Shown: positions 1-38,283, counted from the first letter of the stretch. The stretch is 64,000 bases of DNA from Candidatus Levyibacteriota bacterium (GCA_016182185.1 JACOXU010000001.1:274915-338914), one strand, 5' to 3'. Made by a program: numbers and translations. The notes: generated from the letters alone by a model not told the origin.

Positions 1-1300
1 CCTTTGCATTGAAATAATTTTGCTGAACAAAATACTGATTTAAGTAATATAAAAAATTAAACATAAAAAATAAAAAACAAAAAGAGTATATAAAATATTT
101 TATTTGTATATTTGATATTTTATATTTGATATTTGATATTTTTTGTAAAGCAAAAAGAATTCCTATTGCTGTAAAAATTTGAAATGTTGGTAGAAAGTTA
201 AGTGTTCTGACAGCATGTGGTACTCCGCTTGTGACAGAAGCAGGAATCGGTGCTATTAAAAACCAGGCTAAAACTAAGAACTTTGTCTTTTTATCAAAAT
301 TTCCGAAAATTAAGCAGTATATTCCAATCAAAAGAAAAGGTAATTCAAAAAGATACAAAAGTCCCATATTGGGTGCATGATGCCTCGCAATATCACCTGT
401 GATAAAAAGCCAATTTAGATCAAAATGCGAAACATATCCAGAAACTACTGATTTAGCAAAAGCAATTCGTCTATTATCAAATAACAATCCTAACGTATCA
501 TTATTTTTTTGATCTTCTATTAGTTTTTTGGCATTCTCTTCAAGAAGATTGGTAGTTTCTGAAAAAACACTAACCCCCTTGGCTCTTCCCAGCGCGTTTT
601 TATCAGTTATCGTATAAGACACAATCGGAATCGAAATTAATAATCCAGCTATTGCTGCCAGGAAAATATATTTTTTGGGTATTGAAAAAAGTTCTTTTCT
701 AAAGATTATAATCATGGCCAAAAGTAGAATTGGGGCAAAAACTTTTTCGCTTTGATAAATGTATAGATTTATTGCCATAAAAAATGCCGAAAATACTAGA
801 AACCACGGTTTTTTGAGACCCTTAATAAAAAACAGCACTGAAAAAACATTGAAAGAAAGACCCACGTTTGACTCGAATGCAATTCTTGAAAACTGGATAT
901 GCCAAGGCGAAATAGCAAGCAAGAATGAAGATAAAAGTGCAATTTCTTCTTTTCTGAACAATTCTTTAATTAAAAAATATATTGCAAAAACTGTCATAAC
1001 TCCAAATACTGCAGAAGGAAAACGAACTGAAAAAACAGTCAGATCAAATATTGCAATTGAAGGAATAGTAAAGTAGGTGTAAAATGCAGGCTTATAGTCG
1101 TCAAAGGAACGTAAAATAACAGGAAATAGTTTTCCATATTCATCGCGCCCAGTTTGCATAATTGAGTATGCATTATACCCAAGAGCTACTTCATCCCAAT
1201 CTGGAGATATTGGAACCTCCCCAAGCTTCCAAAGTCTTAGAATTGTAGCTAGAGCTATTATTCCGATTAATAAAATTAAAATAACCTTTTTATTCATAAG
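1..1300 (-). CDS. ArnT/PMT-like (GT39/GT83-like) GT-C fold membrane glycosyltransferase, family A paralog; partial, C-terminus runs off window start
   Basis: Reverse-strand translation from ATG at 1300 is open through position 1: MNKKVILILLIGIIALATILRLWKLGEVPISPDWDEVALGYNAYSIMQTGRDEYGKLFPV...LLAISPWHIQFSRIAFE. It is collinear with the paralogs at 1316-2989, 2986-4650 and 4661-6331. It is absent from the ORF track because it has no stop inside the window. Confidence 0.65.
102..144. repeat. Heptanucleotide tandem repeat (ATTTGAT-like, about 6 units) inside the partial family A gene
   Basis: atttgta tatttga tatttta tatttga tatttga tattttt. It encodes ...QKISNIKYQISNIKY... on the minus strand. 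Confidence 0.7.
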
Positions 1301-1315
1301 TCATAAGGCTTACAC

Positions 1316-2989
1316 CTATCTTGTAAACGCCGCTAGAACAGGCTTACCATTCAACAAATAAAACGTTTTAAGCTGTTTAGATTTACTTGGAATTTTATCT
1401 GGCGTACTGATGAAAAGTATTTTTTTCTTATCATTATTTACCAAATCAAGTCTATCCATAAAACGGTATTTATCAAAGGAAAAAACATCAACAAAACCAT
1501 TTACATCTCTATTAATCTCTGCTGTTTCTCTAAACTTACTAGGATTGTAATTCGTGTAAAATAAGTAATATATGTACGGTCTTCCAAGTGAAGATATTAT
1601 TCTTACCTCATCATAGTTATCGTATTGCTGAGAAACGTAATGAATCGATTCCTTATATCCATACTGCCACTCACCAGAATAAATTCTTGGATAATGGACT
1701 ATATAATCACGGAAGAAATATAAAAAATTGAGAAATAATAGCGATAATAAGAGTAAAATTATAGCAATTCTATATTTTTTTACAAAACTTATTAAATTTA
1801 TAAAACCATAGGCAGTAATAATCTGAAAAGTTGGTAACGTCGCTTCAATTCGCAGAGCATGAGGAGTTTCCCGAGCCGTTCCTGCCGGAATTATTCCTAA
1901 AATCAGCCACAATGGAATAATCCACCAAAATCCTTCCTTTTTTTTTATCAGTAAAAATATTCCAGAAATTAAAAAGACTAAATCCCATAGATACATTTGA
2001 CCTACTGTTTGTGTGGAAAACTTGGGATTGCCATCGCCTTTTATGAAAAGAAAGTTAGGGTTTAAATTGTCAAAATAATGCTTAAGATATGAAACACCAT
2101 ATGCTAAGCGGCGATTATGAAGAATTTTTGACCAAAAGGAATTGTTGTCGTTTGCTATTTCTTGGTTTGTATTGGTAATAATTCCAATATCTGAGAAGAT
2201 GTTTACTTCCCTGAACCTAAGACTTGCTTGAGGAGAAAGTAAAAAATTGACTGATGGGATTATTAATAAAATGCCAAGAATAACTGCAAAAATAACTTGC
2301 TTCTTAATCTTGAATAACTCCTTTCGAAAACCTATTGCCAATGCCAAAATTAAAAGCGGGGAAACAATTCGTGCAGTGTTGAAAGTGTATAAAGAAATTG
2401 CAAGCGAGATTATTGAAAGGATAATAAACCATCTGCTTCCTTTAACCGCCCAGAGAAAAAAGATTACTCCCGCAATGATAAAAAACGTTGCGACATTTGC
2501 TTCAAAGGCGGCGCGGGAAAGCATAATATGCCAAGGACTGATTGCCAGAATTAAAGCTGAAAACAAAGCATATAACTCAGTATTTAGTATTTTGTATTTA
2601 GTATTTTGTATTTGTTTAGGATTTAAGATTTCGGATTCAGAATTTGTTTTGAATAGCGTTTTTACTAAAAAGTATGTCATCAATACAGTCAAAACTCCGA
2701 AAAAGGCAGATGGAAAGCGAACACTAAATTCCGAAAGACCAAAAATTTTCACAGGAATTATAGCAAGATATGCATAAACCGGAGGTTTAAAATCGCCAAA
2801 TGACTCCAGATAATCCAAGGGCAAAAATCTTCCGAATTCATCTCGGGCTTCTTTGCCCAGCGAATAAGCATTATATCCCCACGCTGCCTCATCCCAGGTT
2901 AGAGATGGCGGGTTCTGTCCCAGCTGATAAAACCGTAAAAAAGAAGCAATTAATAATATAAAAAATAGAAATATGTAAATTTTTTTCAT
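1316..2989 (-). CDS. ArnT/PMT-like (GT39/GT83-like) GT-C membrane glycosyltransferase, family A paralog
   Basis: 557 aa, multi-TM. The N-terminal loop carries the conserved D-E (WDEAAWGYNAYS) and ISPWH motifs typical of 4-amino-arabinose/dolichyl-P-mannose protein mannosyltransferase-like enzymes. Confidence 0.7.
   Translation of the reverse strand: MKKIYIFLFFILLIASFLRFYQLGQNPPSLTWDEAAWGYNAYSLGKEARDEFGRFLPLDYLESFGDFKPPVYAYLAIIPVKIFGLSEFSVRFPSAFFGVLTVLMTYFLVKTLFKTNSESEILNPKQIQNTKYKILNTELYALFSALILAISPWHIMLSRAAFEANVATFFIIAGVIFFLWAVKGSRWFIILSIISLAISLYTFNTARIVSPLLILALAIGFRKELFKIKKQVIFAVILGILLIIPSVNFLLSPQASLRFREVNIFSDIGIITNTNQEIANDNNSFWSKILHNRRLAYGVSYLKHYFDNLNPNFLFIKGDGNPKFSTQTVGQMYLWDLVFLISGIFLLIKKKEGFWWIIPLWLILGIIPAGTARETPHALRIEATLPTFQIITAYGFINLISFVKKYRIAIILLLLSLLFLNFLYFFRDYIVHYPRIYSGEWQYGYKESIHYVSQQYDNYDEVRIISSLGRPYIYYLFYTNYNPSKFRETAEINRDVNGFVDVFSFDKYRFMDRLDLVNNDKKKILFISTPDKIPSKSKQLKTFYLLNGKPVLAAFTR
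2581..2615. repeat. Heptanucleotide tandem repeat (TATTTAG/TATTTTG, 5 units) inside the family A gene 1316-2989
   Basis: tatttag tattttg tatttag tattttg tatttgt. It encodes QIQNTKYKILNTE in the loop before the ISPWH motif. Confidence 0.7.
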
Positions 2990-4650
2990 GATATAAGTTT
3001 TACAATATAATAAACAGATTTTGAATAAACTCCGTCAATCTTTTTCAAAACTTCAAACTTGTATTGTCTTTTTTCAGATTGAATTAAATTATTTTGAGAA
3101 TTAAAATCCTCAGAAGACAAAATAAATATTGTATTTCCCTTTATATATGATGACAAATCTGAAGTTGCAAAATTTATTCCCTCTCCCCTATCCCACTGTG
3201 AAATGCCAAAATGAATATTTTCAAATCCATCAATACTTCCACTTTTCTGGTATAAAGATGGCTGGTATTTAAGATAAAACAGCATATAAATATAAGGGCG
3301 CCAAAAGTAGCCTGTCACATAAATGTTATCGTACTTACTTTTATTTTCTTTTACAAACTGTGCCATTTGTTTATGCCCGTCGCCCCAAACTAGAGATGTA
3401 TGATATGGCTGATAATCAAAGTAAAGAACCAGAAAACGGATGAAAAAGAAGATAAAAACAATTACAAATAGGCTCAAATAAAATTTAAAAAATCTATTTT
3501 TTTTCAAAATATTATATAAATAATAAATTCCCATTGCTGAAAACAGAACTACGACAGGAACGTTAGGCAAAGTTCTGAATGGATTAGGCTGCTGCGTTGT
3601 AAGCCCTCCTACGATTGGGACTGCGAAAAACCAAGCAATAAAAATCCATTTCCATTTTTCTTTTATTCTAAATAAGAAATAGATTCCCAGAAGCACAAGG
3701 GGAGCTTCCCAAAGATACATAAGACCCATGGGTCCTGTACCAGTGGCAAAATAAAAATCCGGAGCCAAATTCTTAAGATAATTTTCTGAAAATTGCTGGA
3801 GATAGGCAATGCGCCTGTTATATATAATCTTTGAAAGTAAAGAATTATTATTTCTTAAAATTGCCTGTGAGTATGGATTAGTATAACTTTTATCCTCAAG
3901 AATGCTGACTGTATTTACTCTCGTTAAACCAACAGGATTAAGAATATTGAAAAGAATAGGAATAGAAAATATAACTCCCAGAATAATACCTGCTGTCACC
4001 CATTTCTTAATTTTTAAAAATCTGTCTTTATAGATAAGAAAGAAAACCAAAAAAACAATTGGGATTAAAATTCTTGAAGTATAGTAAAAATAAAACGAAA
4101 TAACTGCTGACATTACAGAAGCTATAAAGAAAGATGGATTTTTAAATGTTTTAACAAGAAGCAAAATTGAAAGTACAATAAAAAAGAGGCTTCCATTTGT
4201 TTCAAATGCTGCTCTTGAAAAATTAATATGCCAGGGAGATATAGCCAGAAGTAGAGCCGCTACTTCTGGAATTTCTAATTTCCAATTTTTAATTTCTAAT
4301 TTAAGGTTTGTATTACGAAATAATTCTTTGAGTAGAAAATAAAAAGCGATAATCGTGAGAACTCCAAGAAAGGCGGAGGGAAACCGAACACCAAATTCAT
4401 TAAGGCCGAATATTTTCTCGGAAATCGCAACTGAATAAATCATTCCTGGAAGCTTTGAATCATCAAAAGAACGAAAGAAAATCGGCCAAGGATTGCCGTA
4501 TTCATCTTTTCCCGTAGTCAATATTGAGTAGGCATTATAACCTATGGCAGCCTCATCATGTGAAACACCGGGAGGAATCTGACCTAAATCCCAAAACCGC
4601 AAAATAATACCTATAAAAATAATAACAGTCAGAAATATATATTTTTTCAT
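2986..4650 (-). CDS. ArnT/PMT-like GT-C membrane glycosyltransferase, family A paralog
   Basis: 554 aa with HDEAAIGYNAYS and ISPWH motifs. It overlaps its neighbour by 4 nt, consistent with translational coupling. Confidence 0.7.
   Translation of the reverse strand: MKKYIFLTVIIFIGIILRFWDLGQIPPGVSHDEAAIGYNAYSILTTGKDEYGNPWPIFFRSFDDSKLPGMIYSVAISEKIFGLNEFGVRFPSAFLGVLTIIAFYFLLKELFRNTNLKLEIKNWKLEIPEVAALLLAISPWHINFSRAAFETNGSLFFIVLSILLLVKTFKNPSFFIASVMSAVISFYFYYTSRILIPIVFLVFFLIYKDRFLKIKKWVTAGIILGVIFSIPILFNILNPVGLTRVNTVSILEDKSYTNPYSQAILRNNNSLLSKIIYNRRIAYLQQFSENYLKNLAPDFYFATGTGPMGLMYLWEAPLVLLGIYFLFRIKEKWKWIFIAWFFAVPIVGGLTTQQPNPFRTLPNVPVVVLFSAMGIYYLYNILKKNRFFKFYLSLFVIVFIFFFIRFLVLYFDYQPYHTSLVWGDGHKQMAQFVKENKSKYDNIYVTGYFWRPYIYMLFYLKYQPSLYQKSGSIDGFENIHFGISQWDRGEGINFATSDLSSYIKGNTIFILSSEDFNSQNNLIQSEKRQYKFEVLKKIDGVYSKSVYYIVKLIS
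4271..4305. repeat. Heptanucleotide tandem repeat (ATTTCTA-like, 5 units) inside the family A gene 2986-4650
   Basis: atttcta atttcca attttta atttcta atttaag. It encodes LKLEIKNWKLEI in the same loop position as the tract in the neighbouring paralog. Confidence 0.7.
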
Positions 4651-4660: not shown

Positions 4661-6331
4661 CTATTTTACCTTAAGAACCGAAAAAACATCTGAATTGTCA
4701 CCCCTTTTAATTTTTTTAAGTAATTTGAAACTATCTATATCTTTGCAAAGGAAACTGTTTACGTATAGAACATTTGTTTCTCCAACAAGAACCTTGCTAT
4801 CATTTTTCTTTTCTATTCTCAAAGGACATTCGTCTTGAGAGAAAACGTATTTTCCAAATCCAATTCTATCAAAATCATTAATCTTGGGGTTTCTTGTTTC
4901 CTCTTGAAAGGCAATAGGATCGTATTTGCTGTAAAACAAGAAAAAAATAGCCGGAGCTGATTCTCTGTCCGTAATTACTGCCCTTTTGTAGGTAGGTAAA
5001 AGATTATTTACGACAGCAACTAGCTCCTTATACCCATCTTGCCTATACCATGGTCTATAGTGACTAAGATGGACATAATACTGATGTAAATAGCTCAGAA
5101 GCCCAAAAAGAAAAAATATAAAAATAATCACTATTAAAAAAAGCGAAAAAAATGTTTGCTTTTTAAGTAATGAGTATAGAGAAAAAAATCCATAAGCACT
5201 TATAATTGAAAGAGCGGGAAAGAAAATTAAGGTTCTTTGTACATTGGGAACATCATCCGAAGTAAGCGCGCTTCCAACAGGAACAAGAAAAATCCATCCA
5301 AGCAAAAAGACACCCTTTCTAAAATTGTTTTTAAGAAGCATCCATATTCCGAATAGTAAAAACGGCAATTCTATTAAATAGATTGGACTTATCTGAGGAA
5401 CTCTATACCTATCAGGGAGGCCTTGGTCTTCGAAAAGAAAGTCAAAGGAAAAGTGAGCGAAATAATTTTGGAAAAATTGAGAGGTATAACCTATAACTTT
5501 ATTATGAAAAGTACGAGAAAGAAATATCGGAACATTCGAAACACCATCTTCTCTGATCTGCTGATTTACTTCAAGTTGTGTTTGACTGCTTGAAAAAATA
5601 CTTACAGTTTTTATTCGTAAAGTCAAACTATCTGAAGAAAGAATCAGAAAAACCGGAATAATTATAGTTAATATAAACAGAAAAATTGAAGTTTTGAATC
5701 TCTTAAGCTCTAATTTGGACCAAAATGAAATAATAAATAATAATGGTATGAAAAAAGGAAGAAAAGCTCTAGGCGCCTGGTAAAAAAAGAGCGTTAGGCT
5801 GAAAATTAAAAAGGAGGCTATTAATAAAATTAAATTCTTTTTTCTGACCCATAAAAAAAATAAAAGTGTTGTAACTGAAATCAAAAAAACAACAATTGTA
5901 TTTTCTGTCGCAGTTCTTGCCAGATTTATATTCCAGGGAGAAACTGCAATAAATAAAGAGGCAAGGAGTCCAATTTCGGATTTGTGTTTTTTCTCTCGAA
6001 AAATTTCCATCGTAAGGAAATAAGTTATCAAAATAGTCAGACTTCCAAAAAGAGCAGAGGCAAAACGCACAGAAAAAACCGATAATCCAAATAAATATAT
6101 AAATGGAATTGACAAGTAAGAATATCCCGCAGGGCTATATAGAAATGATTTGAGATGTAAAGGTAGAAAATTTCCCGTAATATCTTTACCCGTTAAAAGA
6201 ATTGAGTAGGCATTATAGCCTAGAAATGCTTCATCCCTATGAAGTCCAACAGGAATTTCTCCAAGCCTATAAAGCCTCAGCACTAATCCCAGAATGAAGA
6301 TTAAAACTAGAAAGAAAATATATTTTTTCAA
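4661..6331 (-). CDS. ArnT/PMT-like GT-C membrane glycosyltransferase, family A paralog
   Basis: 556 aa with RDEAFLGYNAYS and VSPWNI motifs and the same multi-TM architecture. Confidence 0.7.
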   Translation of the reverse strand: MKKYIFFLVLIFILGLVLRLYRLGEIPVGLHRDEAFLGYNAYSILLTGKDITGNFLPLHLKSFLYSPAGYSYLSIPFIYLFGLSVFSVRFASALFGSLTILITYFLTMEIFREKKHKSEIGLLASLFIAVSPWNINLARTATENTIVVFLISVTTLLFFLWVRKKNLILLIASFLIFSLTLFFYQAPRAFLPFFIPLLFIISFWSKLELKRFKTSIFLFILTIIIPVFLILSSDSLTLRIKTVSIFSSSQTQLEVNQQIREDGVSNVPIFLSRTFHNKVIGYTSQFFQNYFAHFSFDFLFEDQGLPDRYRVPQISPIYLIELPFLLFGIWMLLKNNFRKGVFLLGWIFLVPVGSALTSDDVPNVQRTLIFFPALSIISAYGFFSLYSLLKKQTFFSLFLIVIIFIFFLFGLLSYLHQYYVHLSHYRPWYRQDGYKELVAVVNNLLPTYKRAVITDRESAPAIFFLFYSKYDPIAFQEETRNPKINDFDRIGFGKYVFSQDECPLRIEKKNDSKVLVGETNVLYVNSFLCKDIDSFKLLKKIKRGDNSDVFSVLKVK

Positions 6332-7965
6332 ATTTTTTGGATATACGTATTTATTCTTTCTCTAAATATAAATATTAAACCTACTATTACTATTCCTATT
6401 AAACTGACATAATCTGCAAAGAGTCTTATTGGAGATTCTCCGAATTCAACTTTTACAAAGTGGTGTCCTCTTGGAACATTGAAAGTAATTAATCCTCTAT
6501 AATTAATATCTTGAAATTCAATGGGCACTTTTTTATTATCTACAAAAACTCTCCATCCCGGAAAATATACGGTACTATCAAGAATTTCAAGATTTTTTTC
6601 CGCTTGAACCTCAAAACTATGAAAATTGGATTTTCTGAATACATTATAAACTCTTCCTTTGCCTGATACTATCGTAATTGGAGCCTTTGGGTATGATGAT
6701 GCGTCTCCTGCAACCCAAATTGTTGTTGCCTCACTGTGATATGCAGCAGTGCCTGGGTAATTAAAATAATAACTATCAAGCCTGTCTTGATATGCAGCTA
6801 CCTTTGCCATGGGAATAGACAGGATAAATAAGAAAAGCAAAACAGTGAGTATTAATATTTTATTTTTAACTTTGGTAAAAAAGTAACCAGTAAGAACAGC
6901 AGTTGCAAAACTTGATATAGCAGTGAAACGCCAGGGAAACTGAAATTGCTGCAGGGTATGAATGTTTTTCCACAAAAATTCTGATAGCGGAGTCGAAAGA
7001 AATATAGCAAGTGATAAAATAACAAACCAGTATCCTACATGCAATTTATCTTTTATTTTTTTTCTGAGAAATAGTAAAAAGACTAATACTGAAAAAATCA
7101 TATGCAAAGGCCCTATTTGAGCAGATAAACCTCCTTGTGTATTAATATTACTTCCGAACCCCCAGCTTGAGTAGATTAATCCCTCAAATTTCAAAAAATG
7201 TTCTTTATACCACTCGCCAATCAGTAGTTTGCTGTTTATATATTTTGCCTCTATCAATGCAGGCAGCCAGAAATAAACTGTGATTATTAATCCGATTAAT
7301 AAGATGCTTGTATTCGCAAGTATTAACTTTTTATCTCTTAAGCTTTTAACTACAATGTATCCAAAAATAATAATTGAAAAAGAAAAGCTTAAAATATTAT
7401 GAGAAAGAATCAAAAATGCGTAAGATAATCCACCAATTAGAATATTGCCAACTGAAATTTTATGGCCGTTTTTTTCGATCGCGTATAGTATAAGAGGTGG
7501 AAAGATAAAAGCCAATGATTCTGCCAAATGTCCTCTGACAAATACGTCTAAAAAACTATATGGAGCAAGTCCATAAAATAAAGAAGAAACCAGAGCTGCC
7601 CACTCTTTAAAAATTTGCTTTGCCCATAGATAAAAGGACAAAGGTGCCAAAATAAATGTTGCTCCCATTAATATTTTATAACTGTCTTGCAGATTAAATC
7701 CGAAAAAGTGAATAATACCTGTGATGTAATTACTTAAAGAATAAAAAAATATCAGTCCGGGGTTCCCATAACCATAATTCAAACCTCCTGCCCATCGCGC
7801 GGGAAACTGTCCATCTGATACAGCTTTTATACTCGCGGCAATTCTGGCAATTTGAGGAATACCATCATGAGATGTATACAATCCAGGTTGCATAATTGGT
7901 AAAAGATACAAGGAGGAAACGATAATGATAAAAAAAGGAAATAACCAAATTGATAATTTTTTCAT
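6328..7965 (-). CDS. Uncharacterized polytopic membrane protein, family B (GT-C-like, 'HDG...DGQFP-RW' family)
   Basis: 545 aa with an N-terminal TM and the loop TSHDGIPQIARIAASIKAVSDGQFPARWAGGLNYGYGNPGLIFFY, then 10 or more TM segments. Paralogs lie at 25726, 27456 and 33108. Confidence 0.55.
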   Translation of the reverse strand: MKKLSIWLFPFFIIIVSSLYLLPIMQPGLYTSHDGIPQIARIAASIKAVSDGQFPARWAGGLNYGYGNPGLIFFYSLSNYITGIIHFFGFNLQDSYKILMGATFILAPLSFYLWAKQIFKEWAALVSSLFYGLAPYSFLDVFVRGHLAESLAFIFPPLILYAIEKNGHKISVGNILIGGLSYAFLILSHNILSFSFSIIIFGYIVVKSLRDKKLILANTSILLIGLIITVYFWLPALIEAKYINSKLLIGEWYKEHFLKFEGLIYSSWGFGSNINTQGGLSAQIGPLHMIFSVLVFLLFLRKKIKDKLHVGYWFVILSLAIFLSTPLSEFLWKNIHTLQQFQFPWRFTAISSFATAVLTGYFFTKVKNKILILTVLLFLFILSIPMAKVAAYQDRLDSYYFNYPGTAAYHSEATTIWVAGDASSYPKAPITIVSGKGRVYNVFRKSNFHSFEVQAEKNLEILDSTVYFPGWRVFVDNKKVPIEFQDINYRGLITFNVPRGHHFVKVEFGESPIRLFADYVSLIGIVIVGLIFIFRERINTYIQKI

Positions 7966-18349: not shown

Positions 18350-18412
18350 GAGTTAATTCTACCAACTTTTATACTCCTTGCAAAGTTATTTGAGCTATGA
18401 TATCGTCAGAAT

Positions 18413-29011: not shown

Positions 29012-30742
29012 TTATTCTCCTGATTTAATTAAAACATAAGCATTTTCCTCTACCGGGTACTGGATGATTTTTTGTTTCAAGGAAAAAACTACCGGTCGGC
29101 TTGGGAAATTAAAAACTTCAACTGTTGAGACTTCCTTCGGCTTTCTATTTTCTGAAGTTATGATCAATGTCCTTTGGAGGCTCAGATCTTTTCCCCAATC
29201 AATATCTCTGAATTCATATTTACCAAACGACTTGACTTCGCTGAAACCCTCTGAATCATCAGGAAGACGTTCTGTTGTTTTCTGAAATTCCCAAGGAGAA
29301 TAAGGTATATAAAAAAGAAGTGAAGTATAAATAAAACCTGCATATTTATCGAAAATAATTTTTTCATATTCTGTCTCATGTTCTTTAATAAAAAGGGCTA
29401 CTTTCTTATCTTCTGATCTCCATGCTTTTGCATAAATTACTGGAAACCGAATATAGTAAGATGTAAAGTAAAATATTAGATTGTAGATGATGATAGACCC
29501 AATAACAACAAATAGAGCAACCTTTAATTTGTAATTTTTAATATCATTAAGCCATTTGGTAAAAAAGATAAACCCATAAGCTGAGAAAATTACAAATGGT
29601 GCAATAAGAAAAAAACTGCGCGTTGCGTGAGGTGATTCGCGCGTTAAAGCTGCAACCAGAATTGTTAAAACTGACCAACCAAACAAAAGAAAACCCCATC
29701 GGTATTTTTTATTAAATATTTCAATAGCACCCAAAGATATAAAAAGAATTTCAATTAAATAGAATTGTCCAACGTTCCCAATACCATGATTTCCATGTGT
29801 TGATCCAGTAATAAAGAAGAAAGAAGAAGAGAGATACGAAGCAATATTTTCAATATATTTCCAAAGAGTTAATAATTTTAAATTGAAAAATATTTTTGTA
29901 AATAAACTCGATAAATCAACAAGATAAGCTCTAAACTCTAAAAGATTTGCCTGTATTTGGGCGCTTGTAGTAATAAGCGTTCCGCTTGAGGAAGAAATTC
30001 CTCCGCCTGAAAAAAATGTTTTTAAGAATGGCACGAGAAAGATAAAAGATATTATAAATGTCGATATTATTTCGATTTTTTTTATGTTGCCCATTTGTTT
30101 CTTGTAAGTCATTACGAACAACAAATAGAGTGCAGGGGCCAGTAATCTTGTCAAATTATAAGAATAAAAAGATATGATAAAGCATATTGTACCCATTAAA
30201 AACGCACCTTTACTTCTTTTATTAAAAGATTTCAATAGCAGGAGTCCGCCAACTATAAATAAAAATAGCGAGATGCTAACCTCAAAAGTTGCCCTGCTGT
30301 AATGCAGATGCCAGGGATTTATAGCCAGTATAAAAGAACTTATTAGAGCAAAATAATTTGTATCTATCTCCTTTCCTCTTATTGTTAATCTTTTTTCGTT
30401 TATTAATTCTTTTATAAAAAAATAGAACATAATTACTGTCAGAAATCCAAAAAATGCAGAGGGGAAGCGAACTGCAAATTCAGTCAACCCAAAAATTTTT
30501 ATAGATAAAACTGTTGAATAAATATAAACAGGGAGCTTCCAATCACCAAATGATTTAAAGTAAAGAGGCATAAACTTACCATATTCATCTCTTCCAGTCT
30601 CGAGTATCGAATAGGCATTATAACCAATGGCTGATTCATCTTGATAAAATCCGTATGGAATTTCACCTAGTTTATAGAATCTTAAAAAAAAGGAAGTAAA
30701 AATGATCAAAGTAAAAAGTATAATTTCAATCTTTCTATTCAT
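29012..30742 (-). CDS. ArnT/PMT-like GT-C membrane glycosyltransferase, family A paralog
   Basis: 576 aa with YQDESAIGYNAYS and INPWHL motifs. Confidence 0.7.
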   Translation of the reverse strand: MNRKIEIILFTLIIFTSFFLRFYKLGEIPYGFYQDESAIGYNAYSILETGRDEYGKFMPLYFKSFGDWKLPVYIYSTVLSIKIFGLTEFAVRFPSAFFGFLTVIMFYFFIKELINEKRLTIRGKEIDTNYFALISSFILAINPWHLHYSRATFEVSISLFLFIVGGLLLLKSFNKRSKGAFLMGTICFIISFYSYNLTRLLAPALYLLFVMTYKKQMGNIKKIEIISTFIISFIFLVPFLKTFFSGGGISSSSGTLITTSAQIQANLLEFRAYLVDLSSLFTKIFFNLKLLTLWKYIENIASYLSSSFFFITGSTHGNHGIGNVGQFYLIEILFISLGAIEIFNKKYRWGFLLFGWSVLTILVAALTRESPHATRSFFLIAPFVIFSAYGFIFFTKWLNDIKNYKLKVALFVVIGSIIIYNLIFYFTSYYIRFPVIYAKAWRSEDKKVALFIKEHETEYEKIIFDKYAGFIYTSLLFYIPYSPWEFQKTTERLPDDSEGFSEVKSFGKYEFRDIDWGKDLSLQRTLIITSENRKPKEVSTVEVFNFPSRPVVFSLKQKIIQYPVEENAYVLIKSGE

Positions 30743-33104
30743 TTTTTACTAAACGGGGAATTAGTATTAAAAACCCCGATAATGCAATTAGACTTATTAT
30801 ACTAACTTTTATACCTAAAACGAAGGAATCAGGTGTATAACTGAAGATAACAGTATGTTTCCCGGATGGCACAATAATTGCTCTGAAGGCATAATTTGCG
30901 CGATAAATTTTTGTCTCTTTTCCATCAACAAATGCTTTCCATGAGGGATAAAAAACATCCGAGATAAATAATAGCTGTTTTCTTTCAGTCTTTGAGTTAA
31001 GTATAACCTTATTGGGGTTGTAAGAAATGAGTCCTACTTGCCCAGAAGATCCCTGATCAATATTTTCTGCAAGATTTTCCTCGAGTAAAATTGTCCTTCG
31101 AGGATCAAAATTTTCTGAAAAGAAATTGTTTTCGAATTCCTGATCAGTTTTAAAAACTTTATAATTTGACGCCAGGAATACCCGGGGCAGAGCTTTTTGA
31201 TTTTCTAAAACTAGCCAATTGTTAGTTTCATGAATCAGCTTGAATCTTTCTTTGGGAAATGTGATTTCCGTACTCCCATTTTCTACCCTATCAAGAATAT
31301 ATTTAATACCGAGAATATCTAAAATTCTTAATCTGTAAATATTTGACGGCAGATCTTTTTCTCCAAAACCAGGAGCAATTATTGCATCAGAACGATTTTC
31401 ATTTATAAAAACTTTTTTAATTTTTCCGTTTTTTGAACTTTGAATAAATTCACCATATCTTTTGGGATAAATGGGGTCATATCCGTCTGGGGAGAAAAAC
31501 TCAAACTGCGTTGCAAAATTCGCTTCAATTGCCGCTCCCCCATATCCCCAAACTCTGTCTATTCCTGCTGTTTTTTTTAGATAATCTATTATAGAGGCTT
31601 GAGGGAAAACCAAGTTTTTGGGAACAAAAGGATTAAATTTTTGAAAAAAATAAAAAAGGTCAAAAACTGTAACGATAACAAAAATCAGAGCAATAAACTT
31701 GCGGTTTAATTTGAATATCTTAGCAATTAAAATAAGGAGTATAAATGTTCCGAGAATTAAACTTGAATAAATAAAATTCTTTGTGCTAGTTTGGGAATGA
31801 ATTGCCAAAATATATATCCATAAAAATAAAAATAAAAGTCCAATGAAAGTAGCTACTCTATATAATTTACCTTCATTTTTAATAAACCTTTCTATTCCAA
31901 AACCTGCCAAGATACTCAAGGAAAATGAAAGCAGAAATAAAGCATTCGTCGGAGATCCAGTTGAAAAAAATGGAATATTAACTGAATAAAGTAATTCTGT
32001 TAAAAAAGATCTTGTTAGAAAGACCAATAACACAATAAAAGCTATTAAAAAAAATTTAATCTGGTACTTTTTTTTAAAATCAAAGAGGGAGAAAATAGCA
32101 AAGATTAAAGGAATTAAACCAACATACATCGCATTTCCGGGATACGAATCTGATAAAAGATAATTTTGAGAAGCTGGATTACCGAAAAAATCCGGGGACA
32201 CAAAAAGAATTAGTTGATTGAACTGAATAAGTAAATTTTCTAGTAAAAATTTGTAATCTTGACTCGTACGCGCTGACAGATTTATCAGTTCTATTGTTGG
32301 AAAAAGCTGAAAGGAAGAAATTCCCCAAAAAAGAATAATTAAAGAAAAAAAGACTGCTAAAAGTATATTTCTTCTATTATTTTTAAAGTCGTTATAAATA
32401 ATTCTTGTTGTTGCGTAAATTACAATAAATATTAATGAGAAAACGAAAATTTGAATATGTCCTGCTAAAAATGAGAACAAAAGTGAGACAATAAAAAAAA
32501 TAATATTCCAAGAATTTATTTTTTTTATTAGACGTTCAACAAAATACAGGCTTAAGGGCAGCCATAGAATTACATGCCCGATCGTATTGTATTGACTAAA
32601 GACAGTCATAAATAATGAATAAGGAAAAATGATGGCCGAAAAAATTGAACCATATTTTCCCATCTTTATTTCTCTTGCAAAAAGATAACTAAAAATTCCA
32701 GCAAGAAGCGGTTGAAGCATCACCAACAGGCTCCAGGCAGTCACTTGTGAAAAAAAGAAATATAATATAGTAAATGGATAGAATACTGCAGACTGAGAGT
32801 TAGCAAGAATAGGAGAGCCTGAAAAATTATATGGATTCCAAAAAGGAATTTCTCCTTTTTTTAAACTATCGATGGAAAGAGTCCTCCAGGGATAAATTTG
32901 CTTAAGCGTATCAAAATACTGAGCCTTATCAGGATATGTTCCTGGATTATAACCAAGATATGAATATGTCTTCCAGGGAGAATAATGAGTTATTAAATTA
33001 TCTGCGGGAAAAGGAATAAGTCCATTTAAAAAGGATTTATAGAAAAAAAATATTAGTATAAAAAGAAAAATACCGATTGCAAAAATAAATTCTCTAATTT
33101 TCAT
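30735..33104 (-). CDS. YfhO-like GT-C membrane glycosyltransferase, family C paralog
   Basis: 789 aa with IPFWNPYNFSGSPILANSQSAVFYPF. Confidence 0.6.
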   Translation of the reverse strand: MKIREFIFAIGIFLFILIFFFYKSFLNGLIPFPADNLITHYSPWKTYSYLGYNPGTYPDKAQYFDTLKQIYPWRTLSIDSLKKGEIPFWNPYNFSGSPILANSQSAVFYPFTILYFFFSQVTAWSLLVMLQPLLAGIFSYLFAREIKMGKYGSIFSAIIFPYSLFMTVFSQYNTIGHVILWLPLSLYFVERLIKKINSWNIIFFIVSLLFSFLAGHIQIFVFSLIFIVIYATTRIIYNDFKNNRRNILLAVFFSLIILFWGISSFQLFPTIELINLSARTSQDYKFLLENLLIQFNQLILFVSPDFFGNPASQNYLLSDSYPGNAMYVGLIPLIFAIFSLFDFKKKYQIKFFLIAFIVLLVFLTRSFLTELLYSVNIPFFSTGSPTNALFLLSFSLSILAGFGIERFIKNEGKLYRVATFIGLLFLFLWIYILAIHSQTSTKNFIYSSLILGTFILLILIAKIFKLNRKFIALIFVIVTVFDLFYFFQKFNPFVPKNLVFPQASIIDYLKKTAGIDRVWGYGGAAIEANFATQFEFFSPDGYDPIYPKRYGEFIQSSKNGKIKKVFINENRSDAIIAPGFGEKDLPSNIYRLRILDILGIKYILDRVENGSTEITFPKERFKLIHETNNWLVLENQKALPRVFLASNYKVFKTDQEFENNFFSENFDPRRTILLEENLAENIDQGSSGQVGLISYNPNKVILNSKTERKQLLFISDVFYPSWKAFVDGKETKIYRANYAFRAIIVPSGKHTVIFSYTPDSFVLGIKVSIISLIALSGFLILIPRLVKNE

Positions 33105-33107: not shown

Positions 33108-34766
33108 TTAACTTCTATATTTCCGAAGTATTTTTTTGAAATTATTAGACGCTACTCCGATAAGAATGATTGCTATAAACGAAAAGAGGCTTAATAAATT
33201 CGCGAATAATCGCAACCTAGTCTCAGTAAAAATAACTTTTATATTATGTTCTCCTTTTGGAACTTTAAATTCTATCTCTCCTCTATAATTTATGTCTTGA
33301 AATTCTATCTCAACAGGCTTTTCATCAACATAAGCCCTCCATCCCGGAAAATATTGAGTATGATCAACTAGAGTCGTATTTGATTTAGCATCTACTTCAA
33401 ATATATGCAAGTTTGATTTCTTAGAAAAACCTTTTATTACTGCACTACCGTCAATAACTTCTACTCTTTGCTTGGGATACGACTTCGCCGGACCAGCCGA
33501 CCAAATAACATCAGCCTCTCCATAATAAGTAGTATTAAGAGGGAAATTCCAGTAATATTTCTCATCAATTTGATCGTATCCCTCCTTAGTCTGCCAAAAG
33601 GGAATACTTAAGGCAATTATTATAAAAATCAATGATAAATATATCCATTTTTTTTTAAAAAAACTAAAGGATAGAAAACTTGAAGCCGCAAAAGATGTAG
33701 AAAAAACTATACCAGACAAAAATCTCCATGGAAATTGAAATTGTCGAAGTAATGAAATTTTTCTCCAGACAATATTTGAAATGGGGCTCATAAACAATAA
33801 AGAAATCCCGAATATAAAAAGAGAGAAAATAAGTATTTTTTTTATTGTCGGATCTATTTTTCTTCTAATAATTATAAATATCGAAAAAATAACCGTTAAA
33901 ACATGAGGAATTCCAATTTGAACTGGCACATTTCCAGTCCAGAACATTGGGCTATTAATGATATTGGGAGTAAAAAGATTTTTAAAAGAGGGAAAATTAT
34001 TAAGATACACATCTTTCATAAATAAATCTCCATAGGTATACTTATGTTCCAAAATTGCAGGCAGGGAGTAAAAAGCAGACGAAGAAATTCCAAGAGAAAC
34101 AGCAATAAATGCCCAAATTAAATCTTTTTTTCTTTTGGCAAAAAATAAAATGTAGCCAACCGAAATTACAAAAAATATCAAGCTTATCGAATTATGAGAA
34201 ATAATAAGAAGAAAAGTTGCCAAAGAAGTGATGACCAAACCTCTTCTGTAAAATTTTTTAAAGATAAGCGTAATTCCGTACAAAACAAGAGGTAAAAAAG
34301 CATAAGTATATGTCTCTCCAAATGCTCCACGAGTTGTTATCTCAACGATTCTAAAGGTTGCAAACTGATAAAAAATAGTAACCAAAAAAGCTCTCTTGAG
34401 ATCCTCAAAAAACTCTTTTGCGAACATAAACATAAAAAGCCCCGAAAGAATATAGCTTAATGATATTGTTAGCTTAAAGGTGCCCACAAGCCCGAAGCCT
34501 AAAAATAGAAAAATTGATGAAAGTAAATAAGGTAGCGGATAAATAAAATTAAAAAGAGGCATGCCATATCCGTAATTCAAATCCCCTGCAAATCGTACTG
34601 GAAACTGACCATCTTGTAGTGCTTTAAAATATGCCGCGATTCGAGGCAAATGCACCAATCCATCATGAGTATGAACTAATTTATCCGTCAGAAAAATGTT
34701 TATTAGAGGAAGGATTGATAATATTGTGATTAATAAAAAGGGGACTGCGGTATTTCGGAATTTCAT
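33108..34766 (-). CDS. Family B polytopic membrane protein (GT-C-like)
   Basis: 552 aa with VHTHDGLVHLPRIAAYFKALQDGQFPVRFAGDLNYGYGMPLFNFIYPLPY. Confidence 0.55.
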   Translation of the reverse strand: MKFRNTAVPFLLITILSILPLINIFLTDKLVHTHDGLVHLPRIAAYFKALQDGQFPVRFAGDLNYGYGMPLFNFIYPLPYLLSSIFLFLGFGLVGTFKLTISLSYILSGLFMFMFAKEFFEDLKRAFLVTIFYQFATFRIVEITTRGAFGETYTYAFLPLVLYGITLIFKKFYRRGLVITSLATFLLIISHNSISLIFFVISVGYILFFAKRKKDLIWAFIAVSLGISSSAFYSLPAILEHKYTYGDLFMKDVYLNNFPSFKNLFTPNIINSPMFWTGNVPVQIGIPHVLTVIFSIFIIIRRKIDPTIKKILIFSLFIFGISLLFMSPISNIVWRKISLLRQFQFPWRFLSGIVFSTSFAASSFLSFSFFKKKWIYLSLIFIIIALSIPFWQTKEGYDQIDEKYYWNFPLNTTYYGEADVIWSAGPAKSYPKQRVEVIDGSAVIKGFSKKSNLHIFEVDAKSNTTLVDHTQYFPGWRAYVDEKPVEIEFQDINYRGEIEFKVPKGEHNIKVIFTETRLRLFANLLSLFSFIAIILIGVASNNFKKILRKYRS

Positions 34767-34780: not shown

Positions 34781-36298
34781 TCAAATTTCTACTCTATAAA
34801 GTCTCGTGTAAGAATCTCCAACGCCCTTTTTATACTCAAGAATCAATTTAAGCGGCCAATCTTTCGAAGCATCTTCAAATTCATGCTGGTTTGATATCAA
34901 TACATACACTGGTATAGTTTTGGCTCTTTCAATTAGATCTTCAGGAATTTTTGAAGGTACAGGAAAAATTCCACGCTTACCAACATTTTTATTATCACCG
35001 AAATATATTTCAATTGAATAAGTTGGGAGAGATCCGAAGGTTCCCAGTGAAGCCACGTAGATTTTGCCCTTTTTGACTTCTTTATCAAGATAACTAACAA
35101 CCTCTTTTATACCTCCGCCTGCCGGCCAGTCATTAATATACTGACCAAGGTCTGCCTTTGGAATTGGAGCATTAGCAAAATCAGTAAGAATAAAATAATC
35201 ACTACGTATGGCTGCAAAAGAAAATAAAAACAGTAGCACATAAAATATATATTTGTTGTTTAACCTATTGAAGATTTCATAGGTTAAAAAGGCAATAAGA
35301 GGAAGTAAGGACAACGTCATGAAGAAAATAAATCTCGGATAAAGAACTCTCCCAAATAGTGCGAGCGCAACAAAGGGAATAATAAACCAAAGAAAAAGAA
35401 GGATTTTTTCCTTTGTAAATTTTAGGGAAATAAAGAAAGACAATACGATAAGAATAAGAAATGGCCAGGTCATGTAATTAATAAACCAATCAAAAATACC
35501 CTTTATATTTCCAATAAGATAAGTAAAAGGGTGACCCAGCCAATCTCGAAGTGGATAAACAAAAATTGAATTTTTTTCTGCTATAACATGAAAAAGTGGT
35601 GAGAGACGTTGAATTGAATAATAGCCGTAAGAAGCTATAATGACTATAACCGCAAGCCCTATCCATTTTAGCAGTCTCTCCAAACGTCTTTTTTTCGACC
35701 AATCAAAAATTATCAATACAAATGGCGCAAGATAAATATTGAAAAATCCTGACGTCTTAGTAAGAACTCCTCCACCTATTACCATTCCCAGAATAAGAGC
35801 TACATCAAGTCTTGGTTTTTTTACAAGAAGTATCCAAAGATACAAACTCCAAACAGCAAATGCACCTACTAAACTGTCGTAAAGAGCCATGCGATCATAA
35901 ACCAAGGCAAAAGGATAAATTATATAAAGCCCCGCGGACAAAATTCCAATCCATCGATTTTTAAAAATTTCTTTTCCCAAAAGAAAGAGCCCGATCATTG
36001 TAAAAAAACCTGCAACTGTAGAAACCATTCTTCCAGACAATAAGGGATCTTGAATAAAACGCATTAAAATCATATCGAACCAAACAAATAGAGGTTGCTT
36101 TCCATCACTTAGTGAAATAAATCTCCAGTTTGCATCATATCGGGCTATTTGAGACCAGCGGGTATAGATCGCCTCATCTGTAAAAATCGGGAGCGACATT
36201 ATATTGTAAAGTCTGAGGAAAAAATAAGAAACGACTCCTAGAAAAGAGGCAATTATCTCTGTCTGGAATTTTTTGATATCTTTAAAAAAAACTTTCAC
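34781..36298 (-). CDS. ArnT/PMT-like GT-C membrane glycosyltransferase (divergent family A member)
   Basis: 505 aa with an N-terminal loop PIFTDEAIYTRW (the D-E motif) and a multi-TM region. Confidence 0.55.
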   Translation of the reverse strand: MKVFFKDIKKFQTEIIASFLGVVSYFFLRLYNIMSLPIFTDEAIYTRWSQIARYDANWRFISLSDGKQPLFVWFDMILMRFIQDPLLSGRMVSTVAGFFTMIGLFLLGKEIFKNRWIGILSAGLYIIYPFALVYDRMALYDSLVGAFAVWSLYLWILLVKKPRLDVALILGMVIGGGVLTKTSGFFNIYLAPFVLIIFDWSKKRRLERLLKWIGLAVIVIIASYGYYSIQRLSPLFHVIAEKNSIFVYPLRDWLGHPFTYLIGNIKGIFDWFINYMTWPFLILIVLSFFISLKFTKEKILLFLWFIIPFVALALFGRVLYPRFIFFMTLSLLPLIAFLTYEIFNRLNNKYIFYVLLFLFSFAAIRSDYFILTDFANAPIPKADLGQYINDWPAGGGIKEVVSYLDKEVKKGKIYVASLGTFGSLPTYSIEIYFGDNKNVGKRGIFPVPSKIPEDLIERAKTIPVYVLISNQHEFEDASKDWPLKLILEYKKGVGDSYTRLYRVEI

Positions 36299-36313: not shown

Positions 36314-37519
36314 TTATTTTTTAGCTCTTACTATATTATTTAAAGCATATACTGCTCCTGTTAATGCCAGTGATAATATTATCCCAGCTGAGGTAAGCCA
36401 AAACAATATTTGAGGAACAGGATAATTCCAGTCGCCTTTTAATAAAAATGGGATATATTGTGAAAGCGAGAAAAAAGACATAGTCAAAACAGGAATTAAA
36501 ATATAATATTTTTTGCTTGTTAGACTTACAAAAGGAATTACCAGAAGTAAATACCACGGTTGAAAATTCGTTCTGATAGATACAACAACTACCGCCCCTA
36601 CCATCATAACAGTAATTAAATTTATCAAAAACACGAAATTAATTTGTCGTTTTTTGTAGAAAAAGTAACTTGCTAAATAAACTGGGAATATTAAACCGGT
36701 GGCAAATTTAATTCCTGCCGATAATCCAAGTCCGATCCATGAAAAAATATTTTTTTTATTCAAAAAAAGAAATAGGGAAAAAATTGCAAAAAACATCATG
36801 AGAATATCGTTATGAGAGGAGACTAATCCTTCAATAATTATCAATGGGTTAAATGCGAAAAAAGCAAGTCCAAAAAGACTTTCCTTTGGAGAAACCTTAA
36901 TTAAAATCTTTTCAATAAAATAGGCTGTTCCTAAATAACCTAGGCTCATTAAAAATTTAAAAAGAAAAAAAGTGGGAAGAAAAAAATTGAGTCCGATGAA
37001 TGAAAGTGGAATCGTCAATACCAACCAGAAGGGGCCATATGGATAAAATCTGTGAGTCCAATGCATAAATGAAAGCATGGGGTCATTGGGAAAATCCAAT
37101 GCTTTGTGGGTATATGGATTTTGCTGGTAATAAGTTACGATCTTTGCATCAAAAATATAGTTGAATAAATCATGAGAAAACGCATTGTAAGAAAAGGATA
37201 GAATTATACCTGTAGCAATAATTAAAATCCACAACTGCTGCCTTTTGAATCTATGACTATTAATAAATATCAAATGTAATCCATAGAAAACAAACAACAA
37301 AAATATTATTAAACTGTAAAATCCCGTAGATAATGGACGGTTGAAATATCCAATTTGCTGAAAAAATTTTTGTACTACCTGCCAATATGACCATTGAGAC
37401 AAGGTAAGACTTAAATCGACTTGGGTAAAAGAGTAAAGGAATAATCCGACAATGGTTAATAAATATCCAATGCTAATAAATTTTAAATTTGAAATTTGAA
37501 ATTTGAAATTGGACATCAT
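36314..37519 (-). CDS. Polytopic membrane protein (possible GT-C-like mannosyltransferase)
   Basis: 401 aa with about 10 TM segments. The N-terminus carries a heptamer repeat (MMSNFKFQISNLKFISIG). Confidence 0.4.
   Translation of the reverse strand: MMSNFKFQISNLKFISIGYLLTIVGLFLYSFTQVDLSLTLSQWSYWQVVQKFFQQIGYFNRPLSTGFYSLIIFLLFVFYGLHLIFINSHRFKRQQLWILIIATGIILSFSYNAFSHDLFNYIFDAKIVTYYQQNPYTHKALDFPNDPMLSFMHWTHRFYPYGPFWLVLTIPLSFIGLNFFLPTFFLFKFLMSLGYLGTAYFIEKILIKVSPKESLFGLAFFAFNPLIIIEGLVSSHNDILMMFFAIFSLFLFLNKKNIFSWIGLGLSAGIKFATGLIFPVYLASYFFYKKRQINFVFLINLITVMMVGAVVVVSIRTNFQPWYLLLVIPFVSLTSKKYYILIPVLTMSFFSLSQYIPFLLKGDWNYPVPQILFWLTSAGIILSLALTGAVYALNNIVRAKK
37478..37512. repeat. Heptanucleotide tandem repeat (AAATTTG, 5 units) at codons 3-13 of gene 36314-37519
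   Basis: aaatttt aaatttg aaatttg aaatttg aaattgg. It encodes SNFKFQISNLKF immediately after the start codon. Confidence 0.75.
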
Positions 37520-38283
37520 TATCTGTAAGTTCCTTTTATTGAATTTATTTTTATTTTAATAAGATCAAAAAATCCATCTATTGAATCCCTGAGAGGGCTG
37601 ACTCTTCTTGTTTCAACATAAAGCCAATTTACGGGAACTTCCTTTATCTTATATTTCATTTTCTGGGCAAGAAATAAAAGTTCTACATCAAAACCGGCAG
37701 AAACTTTTGATCCGGAAACTTCAGAAAATCCTTTGTTAATTCTATTTATCTTTTCAAAAAGTTTTTTTGCAACATCATGACGGAATGCCTTAAATCCGCA
37801 CTGAGTATCAGAAATGCCTTTTATTCCTACTATTATACTTCGCAATAACATCATTCCTCTTGCCATCACAAGTCTTGTCCAAGGGGCTCCCTTTCTTTTT
37901 GAATTTCGAGATCCAATAACAATATCAAAACCCTTATCTAAATACGGCATGATTTTGTCAATTTCCTCAATTGGTGTTGCTTGATCCATATCAGTAAAAA
38001 CGACGTATTCTCCTGAAGCTTCAAGTACTCCTTTTGTAACCGCTCCTGCCTTGCCGAGATGGTTATTCTTAATGATTCTAAACTCTGGATTATCTTTTAC
38101 AAACTTTTCCGCAAAATCCACACTTCCATCGGTTGATCCGTCATCTACAATGATAACTTCGAAGCTGTATTTTTGTTTTGTCAGAAAATGTAAAACTTTA
38201 TCCAAAACACCCTTTTGTAGATTGGCCATCTCGTTATAAGAAGGAATGACTACCGAGAGAAAAGGATTATTCATCCTATCCAT
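37519..38283 (-). CDS. GT2 glycosyltransferase, dolichyl/polyprenyl-phosphate sugar synthase-like; first gene of the array
   Basis: LSVVIPSYNEMANL...IIVDDGSTDGS...VFTDMDQATP. TGTATAAT lies directly upstream of the ATG, suggesting a leaderless or near-leaderless start. Confidence 0.7.
   Translation of the reverse strand: MDRMNNPFLSVVIPSYNEMANLQKGVLDKVLHFLTKQKYSFEVIIVDDGSTDGSVDFAEKFVKDNPEFRIIKNNHLGKAGAVTKGVLEASGEYVVFTDMDQATPIEEIDKIMPYLDKGFDIVIGSRNSKRKGAPWTRLVMARGMMLLRSIIVGIKGISDTQCGFKAFRHDVAKKLFEKINRINKGFSEVSGSKVSAGFDVELLFLAQKMKYKIKEVPVNWLYVETRRVSPLRDSIDGFFDLIKIKINSIKGTYR

Follow-up and report, generated by a model that had tools for sequence, protein, structure and literature searches.

The 64,000 nt of DNA analysed here, from a bacterium of Candidatus Levyibacteriota (GCA_016182185.1, JACOXU010000001.1:274915–338914; in the following called the window), hold at positions 1–38283 a cluster of 26 back-to-back genes on the minus strand, recovered by listing and translating the open reading frames (ORFs). 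According to Pfam scans these encode 17 membrane proteins with the C fold of glycosyltransferases (GT-C), seven glycosyltransferases of family 2 (GT2), one of family 4 (GT4) and one Wzx-type flippase. We consider it likely that this is a lineage-conserved locus which, in the manner of a fixed assembly line, builds a complex glycan of the cell envelope on the far side of the cytoplasmic membrane. The evidence lies in the gene content, the fold, the conserved acidic residues in loop 1 of the membrane proteins, the homology of the GT2 enzymes and the synteny. The class of mechanism, in which GT-C enzymes transfer sugars from lipid-linked donors on the outside of the membrane, is known. What is new is the scale (17 GT-C genes in 38 kb, about 6% of the 617,327 bp contig), the phylum-wide conservation, and one family, that of gene g05, for which no model exists.

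The source had been taken in a first-pass annotation, made from the DNA alone, for what was probably a small-genome bacterium of the candidate phyla radiation (CPR), and it is indeed Candidatus Levybacteria: g05 and g22 are identical to the annotated proteins HYT08_01540 and HYT08_01630. Members of the CPR, Levybacteria among them, are uncultured; their genomes measure about 0.6–0.8 Mb, and they presumably live attached to other cells. To our knowledge, their surface coat is essentially uncharacterised. The relatives invest in such a locus as well. A locus so costly and so conserved is therefore a concrete handle on the envelope chemistry of the CPR. Its 17 GT-C genes have clear orthologs and could be expressed in a foreign host, its three candidate donor synthases could be assayed, and one GT-C family (8037–9740) lacks a model in both Pfam and NCBIfam. 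Full-text searches, in a library without most subscription journals, brought up no earlier account of clustered GT-C genes in CPR, Patescibacteria or Microgenomates.

Families and fold of the membrane proteins

The 17 GT-C proteins fall into five sequence families. Six are PMT_2/ArnT-like, namely five close paralogs (family A) and the divergent g23; four are short proteins of the YfhO/PTPS_related type (family B: g04, g18, g19, g22); four are long YfhO proteins of 759–801 aa (family C: g07, g10, g12, g21); two are GT87/MptA_B-like (g06, g24) and one, g05, is an orphan. Each has 8–15 hydrophobic segments. The first-pass annotation had counted at least 17 GT-C paralogs, with five or six proteins in family A, four each in B and C and three further polytopic ones, beside seven GT2, one GT4 and one flippase gene, and the Pfam scans reproduce these figures. 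Fourteen of the 17 exceed the gathering score of a family in the GT-C clan (26.1 bits for PMT_2, 25 for GT87 and 28.5 for YfhO, PF09586), and the rest are assigned by paralogy, an MptA_B match or predicted structure. The YfhO threshold is exceeded by all four long proteins and also by g04 (41.3 bits) and g18 (33.1 bits), and the family B genes exceed the score of PTPS_related (PF10131), of YfhO or of both. Gene g20 stays below the PMT_2 cut-off (20.9 bits) and is joined to family A by its paralogy to g01 (E = 4e-88), whereas g24, just under the GT87 cut-off with 24.5 bits, is placed by a weak paralog match to g06 (E = 2.5e-6) together with a match to MptA_B_family (PF26314) precomputed for the identical protein.

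Paralogs within the genome are merely 28–40% identical. Profile alignments with hhalign yielded probabilities of 99.8% for family B against the long YfhO genes, 99% for g23 against family A, and about 94% for family A against both family B and the GT87-like genes; for the g05 family against any other family of the cluster the value did not exceed 31%. Thus, family B is a short form of YfhO/PF10131. The earlier view that this family has no homolog that can be named had to be given up, while the motifs noted for it, HDG, DGQFP[AV]R[WF] and GYGxP, are present and largely invariant. PF10131 is a family of unknown function in the GT-C clan CL0111 (PMC7801869), and no characterised member was found in the literature searched. 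Judged by sequence comparison, the true orphan of the cluster is g05, which has no match in Pfam or NCBIfam. A profile of its family recovered 1302 representative proteins at E <= 1e-3 among 1.84 billion. Among these remote relatives two of about 680 aa (P0310, P0318) carry an N-terminal GtrA/DPMS transmembrane (TM) domain and one matches PMT_2. The GtrA-domain fusions, which join a flippase to a transferase, lend independent support to a putative role of the family with flipped polyprenyl-phosphate sugars.

AlphaFold2 models built from homolog alignments show helical bundles for both g05 and the family B protein g22, with a predicted local distance difference test score (pLDDT) of 89.8 and 86.6, respectively. 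The modelled proteins are structurally similar to solved GT-C enzymes, the matches including AftA, AftD, AftB, PimE and EmbA, and g05 is, as modelled, a GT-C protein. The long YfhO proteins exceed those of family B by about 240 residues; the g22 model of family B shows a small beta-sandwich domain ahead of the last TM helix. Sequence searches against the PDB chains with g01, g12, g22 and the profiles A1 and A2 returned only chance TM matches to GABA receptors; it was by their folds that the solved relatives were recognised.

In solved GT-C enzymes one or more acidic residues in the loop after the first TM helix occupy the catalytic position. Such residues are conserved in the cluster, as counted in alignments which mix window paralogs with orthologs from other genomes. 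D33 and E34 of family A are kept in 44 out of 45 sequences, D41 and E42 of g23 in all 34 orthologs, D35 of family B in 44 out of 44 and D66 of family C in 41 out of 44. In g05 the residues D37, E38 and D40 (PDEFD) are invariant across 39 homologs, and both GT87-like genes have an HD motif. Several Arg/Lys positions are near-invariant too. The positively charged N-termini suggest that loop 1 faces outward, and the kept acidic and basic residues argue that all 17 proteins are active enzymes.

Conservation across relatives and the proposed assembly line

A scan of species-representative genomes with a family B profile yielded 77 related loci (L007–L083) from Levybacteria, Gottesmanbacteria, Woesebacteria and other Patescibacteria, whose ORFs were matched by phmmer to their counterparts in the window. 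At least 16 of the species-representative genomes preserve the order g25-g24-g23-g22-g21-g20-g19-g18-g17-g16-g15 in full, and contig-truncated versions of this 11-gene block occur in several further ones. The other half of the cluster (g12, g13, g11, g10, g09, g08, g07/g06, g04, g03, g01, g00) recurs in L070–L081, and Gottesmanbacteria-like loci are typified by a rearranged form, 'B A A A GT87 / B C A ...'. The densest related locus, L030, has 12 GT-C genes per 21.5 kb, and the complete chromosome CP066685.1 (762,565 bp) carries GT-C-dense stretches at 343.8–365.4 kb and 378.8–400.6 kb. GT-C density is a lineage trait of Levybacteria and other Microgenomates and not a peculiarity of one genome. 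The density had initially been called extraordinary for one locus; this is correct in comparison to characterised systems, but within these lineages it is the norm.

Orthologs of g22 are 45–66% identical between species. Since the paralogs share only 28–40%, the duplications must predate the divergence of the lineage, each copy having been retained since. Recent tandem amplification was rejected in view of the low paralog identity together with the one-to-one orthologs. Fixed content, fixed order and one-to-one orthology speak for non-redundant, linkage-specific steps in the synthesis of one defined glycan. The first-pass annotation had proposed a combinatorial system, which the positional orthologs and the divergence of the paralogs do not support.

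Two observations on the related loci may be added. Some records titled 'Candidatus Pacearchaeota archaeon' (L014) or 'uncultured Gammaproteobacteria bacterium' (L009, L016, L018 and many third party annotation assemblies) show the Levybacteria-type order at 50–63% protein identity; they are more probably mis-binned or mislabelled than instances of transfer. The second stretch of CP066685.1 (L084, 958–3598, about 379.8–382.4 kb) contains genes for a DegT aminotransferase, a hexapeptide acetyltransferase and a GFO_IDH_MocA oxidoreductase, which by family point to an acetamido-sugar pathway; the window cluster has none of these.

On the donor side, g08, g17 and g25 are GT2 proteins free of TM helices that resemble one another from end to end. 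Their best solved relatives are the dolichyl-phosphate mannose synthase (DPMS) of Pyrococcus, GtrB (sll0501) and ArnC. The best PDB matches of g08 are DPMS 5mlz (1.8e-15), GtrB 5ekp and ArnC, those of g17 ArnC 9bhc (2.8e-15, residues 5–218), DPMS and GtrB, and those of g25 DPMS 5mlz (1e-17), GtrB and ArnC. Among the NCBIfam models, g08 is similar over nearly its full length to AglJ, PpgS and dolichyl-P hexose transferase and g17 resembles PgfS, ArnC and AglJ, in both cases below the equivalog cut-offs. These three proteins are candidate polyprenyl-phosphate sugar synthases. The remaining GT2 proteins, g09, g13, g14 and g15, and the GT4 protein g11 look like ordinary nucleotide-sugar-dependent transferases. 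The flippase g16 reaches 118 bits with the NCBIfam MOP flippase model, which is under the cut-off of that model, and its start is overlapped by g17. A TM-less GT-A protein, a Wzx-type flippase and a GT-C protein are also combined in GacI/GacK/GacL of S. pyogenes (PMC8035078).

From this set of genes we infer the type of donor, a flipping step, an order of steps and an acceptor as follows. The soluble proteins g08, g17 and g25 would load sugars from nucleotide sugars onto polyprenyl phosphate. The lipid-linked sugars would then be flipped across the membrane, for which g16, next to g17, is the sole candidate in the cluster. On the outer face, each of the 17 GT-C proteins would attach a sugar in a specific linkage to the growing acceptor, while the GT4 and the other GT2 proteins (g09, g11, g13, g14, g15) would make a primer in the cytoplasm, which could be a glycolipid or an oligosaccharide carried on a lipid. 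As the acceptor, a lipoglycan or a polymer of the wall seems likelier than proteins. That the GT-C proteins use lipid-phosphate-linked donors is indirectly suggested by the candidate synthases in the same cluster and by the GtrA fusions of the g05 relatives. Extracytoplasmic glycosylation from lipid-linked donors, already proposed in the first-pass annotation, fits the joint occurrence of candidate synthases and flippase.

Several observations weigh against such an assembly line. Predicted structures cover two of the 17 GT-C proteins, g05 and g22. All NCBIfam matches of the GT2 proteins are far under the equivalog cut-offs, and g08, g17 and g25 lack the TM helices found in GtrB, ArnC and Pyrococcus DPMS. 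Among the window ORFs scanned there was no initiating phosphoglycosyltransferase, Wzy polymerase, LCP ligase or GtrA-type flippase, which leaves priming, flipping of monosaccharide donors and anchoring unaccounted for. Scans for promoters and terminators, at the start of the cluster and at a gap between g11 and g12 occupied by a DUF5652 gene, gave no more sites than shuffled sequence. Finally, PMT_2 and YfhO relatives elsewhere decorate ready-made polymers or proteins and do not polymerise, which may hold for some of the 17 as well.

Known systems and alternative explanations

The closest likeness at the level of components is to the multi-component transmembrane glycosylation systems (CsbB/GtcA/YfhO, GtlA/GtlB, GacI/GacJ/GacK/GacL, Gtr, ArnC/ArnT), of which the cluster looks like an enlarged version. 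Such systems consist of a GT-A protein making a polyprenyl-phosphate sugar, a flippase and a GT-C protein acting outside the membrane (PMC8035078, PMC11127046). They share the Pfam families YfhO and PMT_2 with the cluster, and the TM-less g17 beside the Wzx-type g16 recalls their GacI/GacK variant. However, they have one GT-C protein per synthase and modify a polymer made elsewhere, whereas here 17 GT-C proteins of five sequence families go with three candidate synthases, and the GtrA-type flippase is missing from the cluster.

In its logic, the cluster is closest to the mycobacterial assembly of phosphatidylinositol mannosides (PIM), lipomannan (LM), lipoarabinomannan (LAM) and arabinogalactan, with PimA/B' (GT4), Ppm1 (GT2), PimE/MptC (GT87), MptA/MptB and the Emb/Aft GT-C enzymes. 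Common to both are a cytoplasmic GT4 primer enzyme, a polyprenyl-phosphate sugar synthase and many linkage-specific GT-C enzymes outside the membrane, and the cluster also has GT87/MptA_B-like genes. A GT4, a Ppm1-like GT2, GT87/MptA_B-like and PMT_2-like enzymes make up the repertoire of PIM/LM/LAM synthesis. In mycobacteria the genes lie more scattered, the arabinogalactan cluster of about 30 kb having about 5–6 GT-C genes. Differences are that no orthology at the sequence level to the named mycobacterial enzymes is seen, that YfhO/PTPS_related families dominate the cluster and that a CPR host presumably has no mycomembrane.

With Wzx/Wzy-type O-antigen or capsule loci the cluster shares a Wzx-family flippase flanked by Leloir-type GT2 and GT4 genes and a G+C content below that of its surroundings. 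Unlike these loci, the window is devoid of a Wzy polymerase, a chain-length regulator, an initiating phosphoglycosyltransferase and sugar-nucleotide genes (Wzy_C, Bac_transf and Glycos_transf_4 gave no match in the cluster, which leaves the Wzx-type gene as the only member of the set), and its gene content is conserved between species where theirs is hypervariable.

Could the cluster serve mainly the O-glycosylation of proteins? The PMT_2/PMT-like enzymes, and perhaps others, would then use polyprenyl-phosphate donors to glycosylate Ser/Thr of secreted, S-layer or type IV pilin proteins, with separate paralogs for separate protein acceptors or for extension of the glycan. Six genes match PMT or PMT_2, three of them (g00, g01, g23) above the threshold of PF02366, and the DE motif in loop 1 is that of PMTs. 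In the window, 1.3 kb separate the cluster from a type IV pilus operon that includes pilins and an LVIVD surface protein. Streptococcal GT-C systems are reported to modify Ser/Thr-rich regions of membrane proteins (PMC12041528). Yet ArnT and the teichoic-acid galactosyltransferases GtlB and GttB of Listeria belong to PMT_2 as well, and it is difficult to account for 17 non-redundant GT-C proteins, GT87/MptA_B-like and YfhO types among them, if proteins were the only acceptors. The Pfam scans found neither MIR nor PMT_4TMC domains in any cluster gene; as far as we know, bacterial PMTs lack MIR as well, so that its absence does not exclude protein acceptors. The adjacency to the pilus genes is not conserved: in L018 a lon and a kinase-like gene abut the g25 ortholog and the locus has no PilB or PilC match, and a lon gene is upstream of the g25 ortholog in L023, L036 and L046, too. 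A functional link between the cluster and the pilus operon was rejected for this reason, and we regard protein O-glycosylation as the main purpose of the locus as unlikely.

About equally unlikely appears a decoration of the type known from CsbB/GtcA/YfhO in Firmicutes, that is, the attachment of individual side-chain sugars to a backbone resembling teichoic acid or rhamnan whose synthesis would be encoded elsewhere in the genome. Eight genes belong to the YfhO/PTPS_related family, and YfhO and PMT_2 enzymes glycosylate lipoteichoic and wall teichoic acids in Bacillus, Staphylococcus and Listeria (PMC5836110, PMC8035078). GT2 genes lie near GT-C genes, as in csdAB/CD/EF. However, three donor synthases for 17 GT-C proteins are far from the one-to-one pairs of the known systems, the window has no GtrA/GtcA flippase, and neither the window nor the related loci examined show genes for a teichoic-acid backbone. 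Furthermore, the strict conservation of all 17 GT-C genes across species differs from the strain variability of decoration genes. For individual enzymes, protein glycosylation and polymer decoration would both be compatible with the assembly line.

A switchable, combinatorial surface is still less probable. It would imply that transferases are toggled, for instance by slippage in heptanucleotide repeats, of which six genes contain an array: g00 (95–142), g01 (2579–2613), g02 (4270–4302), g09 (14824–14858), g10 (16687–16719) and g24 (37478–37510). These arrays have about 4.7–5.7 copies, are read in frame as 7-aa repeats and fall at places where paralogs lack the inserted residues; adding or removing a single unit would throw the gene out of frame. 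Orthologs in other species carry comparable arrays, many of which are perfect, and in the related Microgenomates loci 7 and 14 are by far the commonest tandem-repeat periods. Heptanucleotide arrays recall the STRR repeats of cyanobacteria. That simple repeats can bring about phase variation in genes for glycosyltransferases is a familiar finding from other bacteria (PMC2651432, PMC11868660). But gene content and order are fixed across species, and five independent metagenome assemblies are 100% identical across the repeats they span, thus showing no variation in heptamer copy number. None of the 77 loci contains a frameshifted or split ortholog. The arrays lie in two permissive loops of family A (hot spots at residues ~115–138 and 383–440) and not near gene starts. 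Their roughly 2-fold higher density in genes of the cluster families (about 40 arrays against 6, where cluster genes account for about 77% of the sequence) is not significant. Phase variation at the heptamers thus found no support. Two Logan contigs break exactly at arrays, one starting at 37510 (L002) and the other ending at 2584 (L005).

The most far-reaching possibility combines slippage with the assembly line: a major, so far undescribed envelope lipoglycan or wall heteropolysaccharide of Levybacteria and related Microgenomates, built nearly wholly outside the membrane by about 17–20 dedicated GT-C enzymes, one family of them without a model, in which heptanucleotide slippage would switch single steps and so vary the coat that contacts hosts and phages. 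We regard this as a long shot. That the membrane paralogs are transporters or inactive scaffolds is hardly credible, as the Pfam scans gave no match to a transporter family, the fold matches are GT-C enzymes, the acidic residues at the catalytic position are kept across orthologs together with several basic ones, and a transporter fold is excluded for g05 and g22 by the models and unlikely for the others by family membership.

Gene layout, composition and flanking genes

Twenty-five of the minus-strand ORFs are complete (1316 to 38283); the twenty-sixth, g00, starts at 1297 and leaves the window at its left edge, so the cluster probably extends further left. Junctions between genes range from -34 to +71 nt, close to the 0–70 nt gaps and small overlaps first described, with the sole exception of a 291 nt gap at 18350–18640. 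The number of about 27 genes on a single strand needs correction: 26 are on the minus strand, and a small gene on the plus strand (18413–18664, 83 aa, two TM helices, DUF5652 with 78.8 bits) fills the gap and shares 24 nt with g12 at the 3' end of the latter. The spacing of the locus tags between g05 and g22 implies one annotated gene beyond the minus-strand count, which fits this ORF. An antisense DUF5652 gene is located directly upstream of the g11 ortholog in seven related loci (L070–L072, L078–L081), at 44–62% identity. By its position and orientation the gene would divide the cluster into at least two putative transcription units. It is pure speculation that its product might serve as a membrane partner of the TM-less GT2 proteins, by analogy with GacJ.

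In the direction of transcription the cluster begins with the candidate synthase gene g25 (37519–38283), followed by g24 (36314–37519, GT87/MptA_B-like), g23 (34781–36298; PMT_2 54.0 and PMT 31.9 bits) and g22 (33108–34766, family B). The long YfhO gene g21 (30735–33104, 97.5 bits) precedes g20 (29012–30742, family A with DE motif) and two family B genes, g19 (27456–29009; PTPS_related 41.3 bits) and g18 (25726–27459; PTPS_related 48.2 bits). The second candidate synthase gene, g17 (25032–25745), is directly upstream of the Wzx/MOP-family gene g16 (23594–25045; Polysacc_synt_3 163.3 bits, 12 hydrophobic segments). Three GT2 genes come next: g15 (22689–23588; Glycos_transf_2 87.7 bits), g14 (21767–22687), rhamnosyltransferase-like by Pfam and NCBIfam, and g13 (21007–21795; Glycos_transf_2 59.2 bits), a paralog of g15. 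They are followed by the long YfhO gene g12 (18641–21004, 106.8 bits) and, beyond the DUF5652 gene, by g11 (17282–18349) for the GT4 protein, which has a GT-B fold and is cytoplasmic (Glycos_transf_1 66.4 and Glyco_transf_4 29.3 bits).

Further on, the long YfhO gene g10 (15006–17285, 80.2 bits) is followed by g09 (14080–15009), a Leloir-type GT2 gene similar to EpsD/MftF in Pfam and NCBIfam, and by the third candidate synthase gene, g08 (13328–14038; Glycos_transf_2 121.8 bits). Then come the last long YfhO gene, g07 (10956–13361, 64.7 bits), the GT87-like g06 (9724–10956; 31.4 bits, 8 hydrophobic segments), the orphan g05 (8037–9740), coding for a polytopic protein of 567 aa, and g04 (6328–7965) of family B, 36% identical to g22. 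The cluster closes with four family A genes: g03 (4661–6331; PMT_2 32.1 bits), g02 (2986–4650; PMT_2 36.4 bits), a paralog of g01 with E = 3e-91, g01 itself (1316–2989; PMT 33.2 and PMT_2 33.0 bits, 11 hydrophobic segments) and the truncated g00 (2–1297; PMT_2 51.5 and PMT 38.6 bits). The last has a DE motif after the first TM helix and is 33–40% identical to g01, g02, g03 and g20.

The G+C content is about 31% in the cluster and 35–40% to its right. At third codon positions it amounts to 25.8% in the soluble and membrane genes of the cluster alike, compared with 32.0% in the flanking genes (38284–64000). An amino-acid bias of membrane proteins as the cause of the low G+C content is ruled out by the equal values of both classes. 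The low value resembles that of horizontally acquired polysaccharide loci, which is at odds with the vertical conservation of the cluster across species.

The type IV pilus block 1.3 kb from the start of the cluster (39584–46282, plus strand) codes for a PilB-like ATPase, a PilC-like platform protein, two N_methyl pilins, the LVIVD-repeat protein (662 aa) and two ORFs which belong to no family. Two further plus-strand ORFs, 51283–52371 (362 aa) and 57306–58619 (437 aa), match no Pfam family; the latter has about 120 nt in common with the 5' end of an opposite-strand gene for glutamyl-tRNA synthetase and may not be a real gene. About 16–18 kb from the cluster there is a gene of the inositol-monophosphatase family (53889–54671, plus strand), and on the minus strand a DAGK_prokar gene of the diacylglycerol/undecaprenol-kinase family (55170–55538) and a PAP2 phosphatase gene (55535–56122) are found. 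Judged by their families, these three genes may be concerned with the recycling of polyprenyl phosphate or with inositol lipids.

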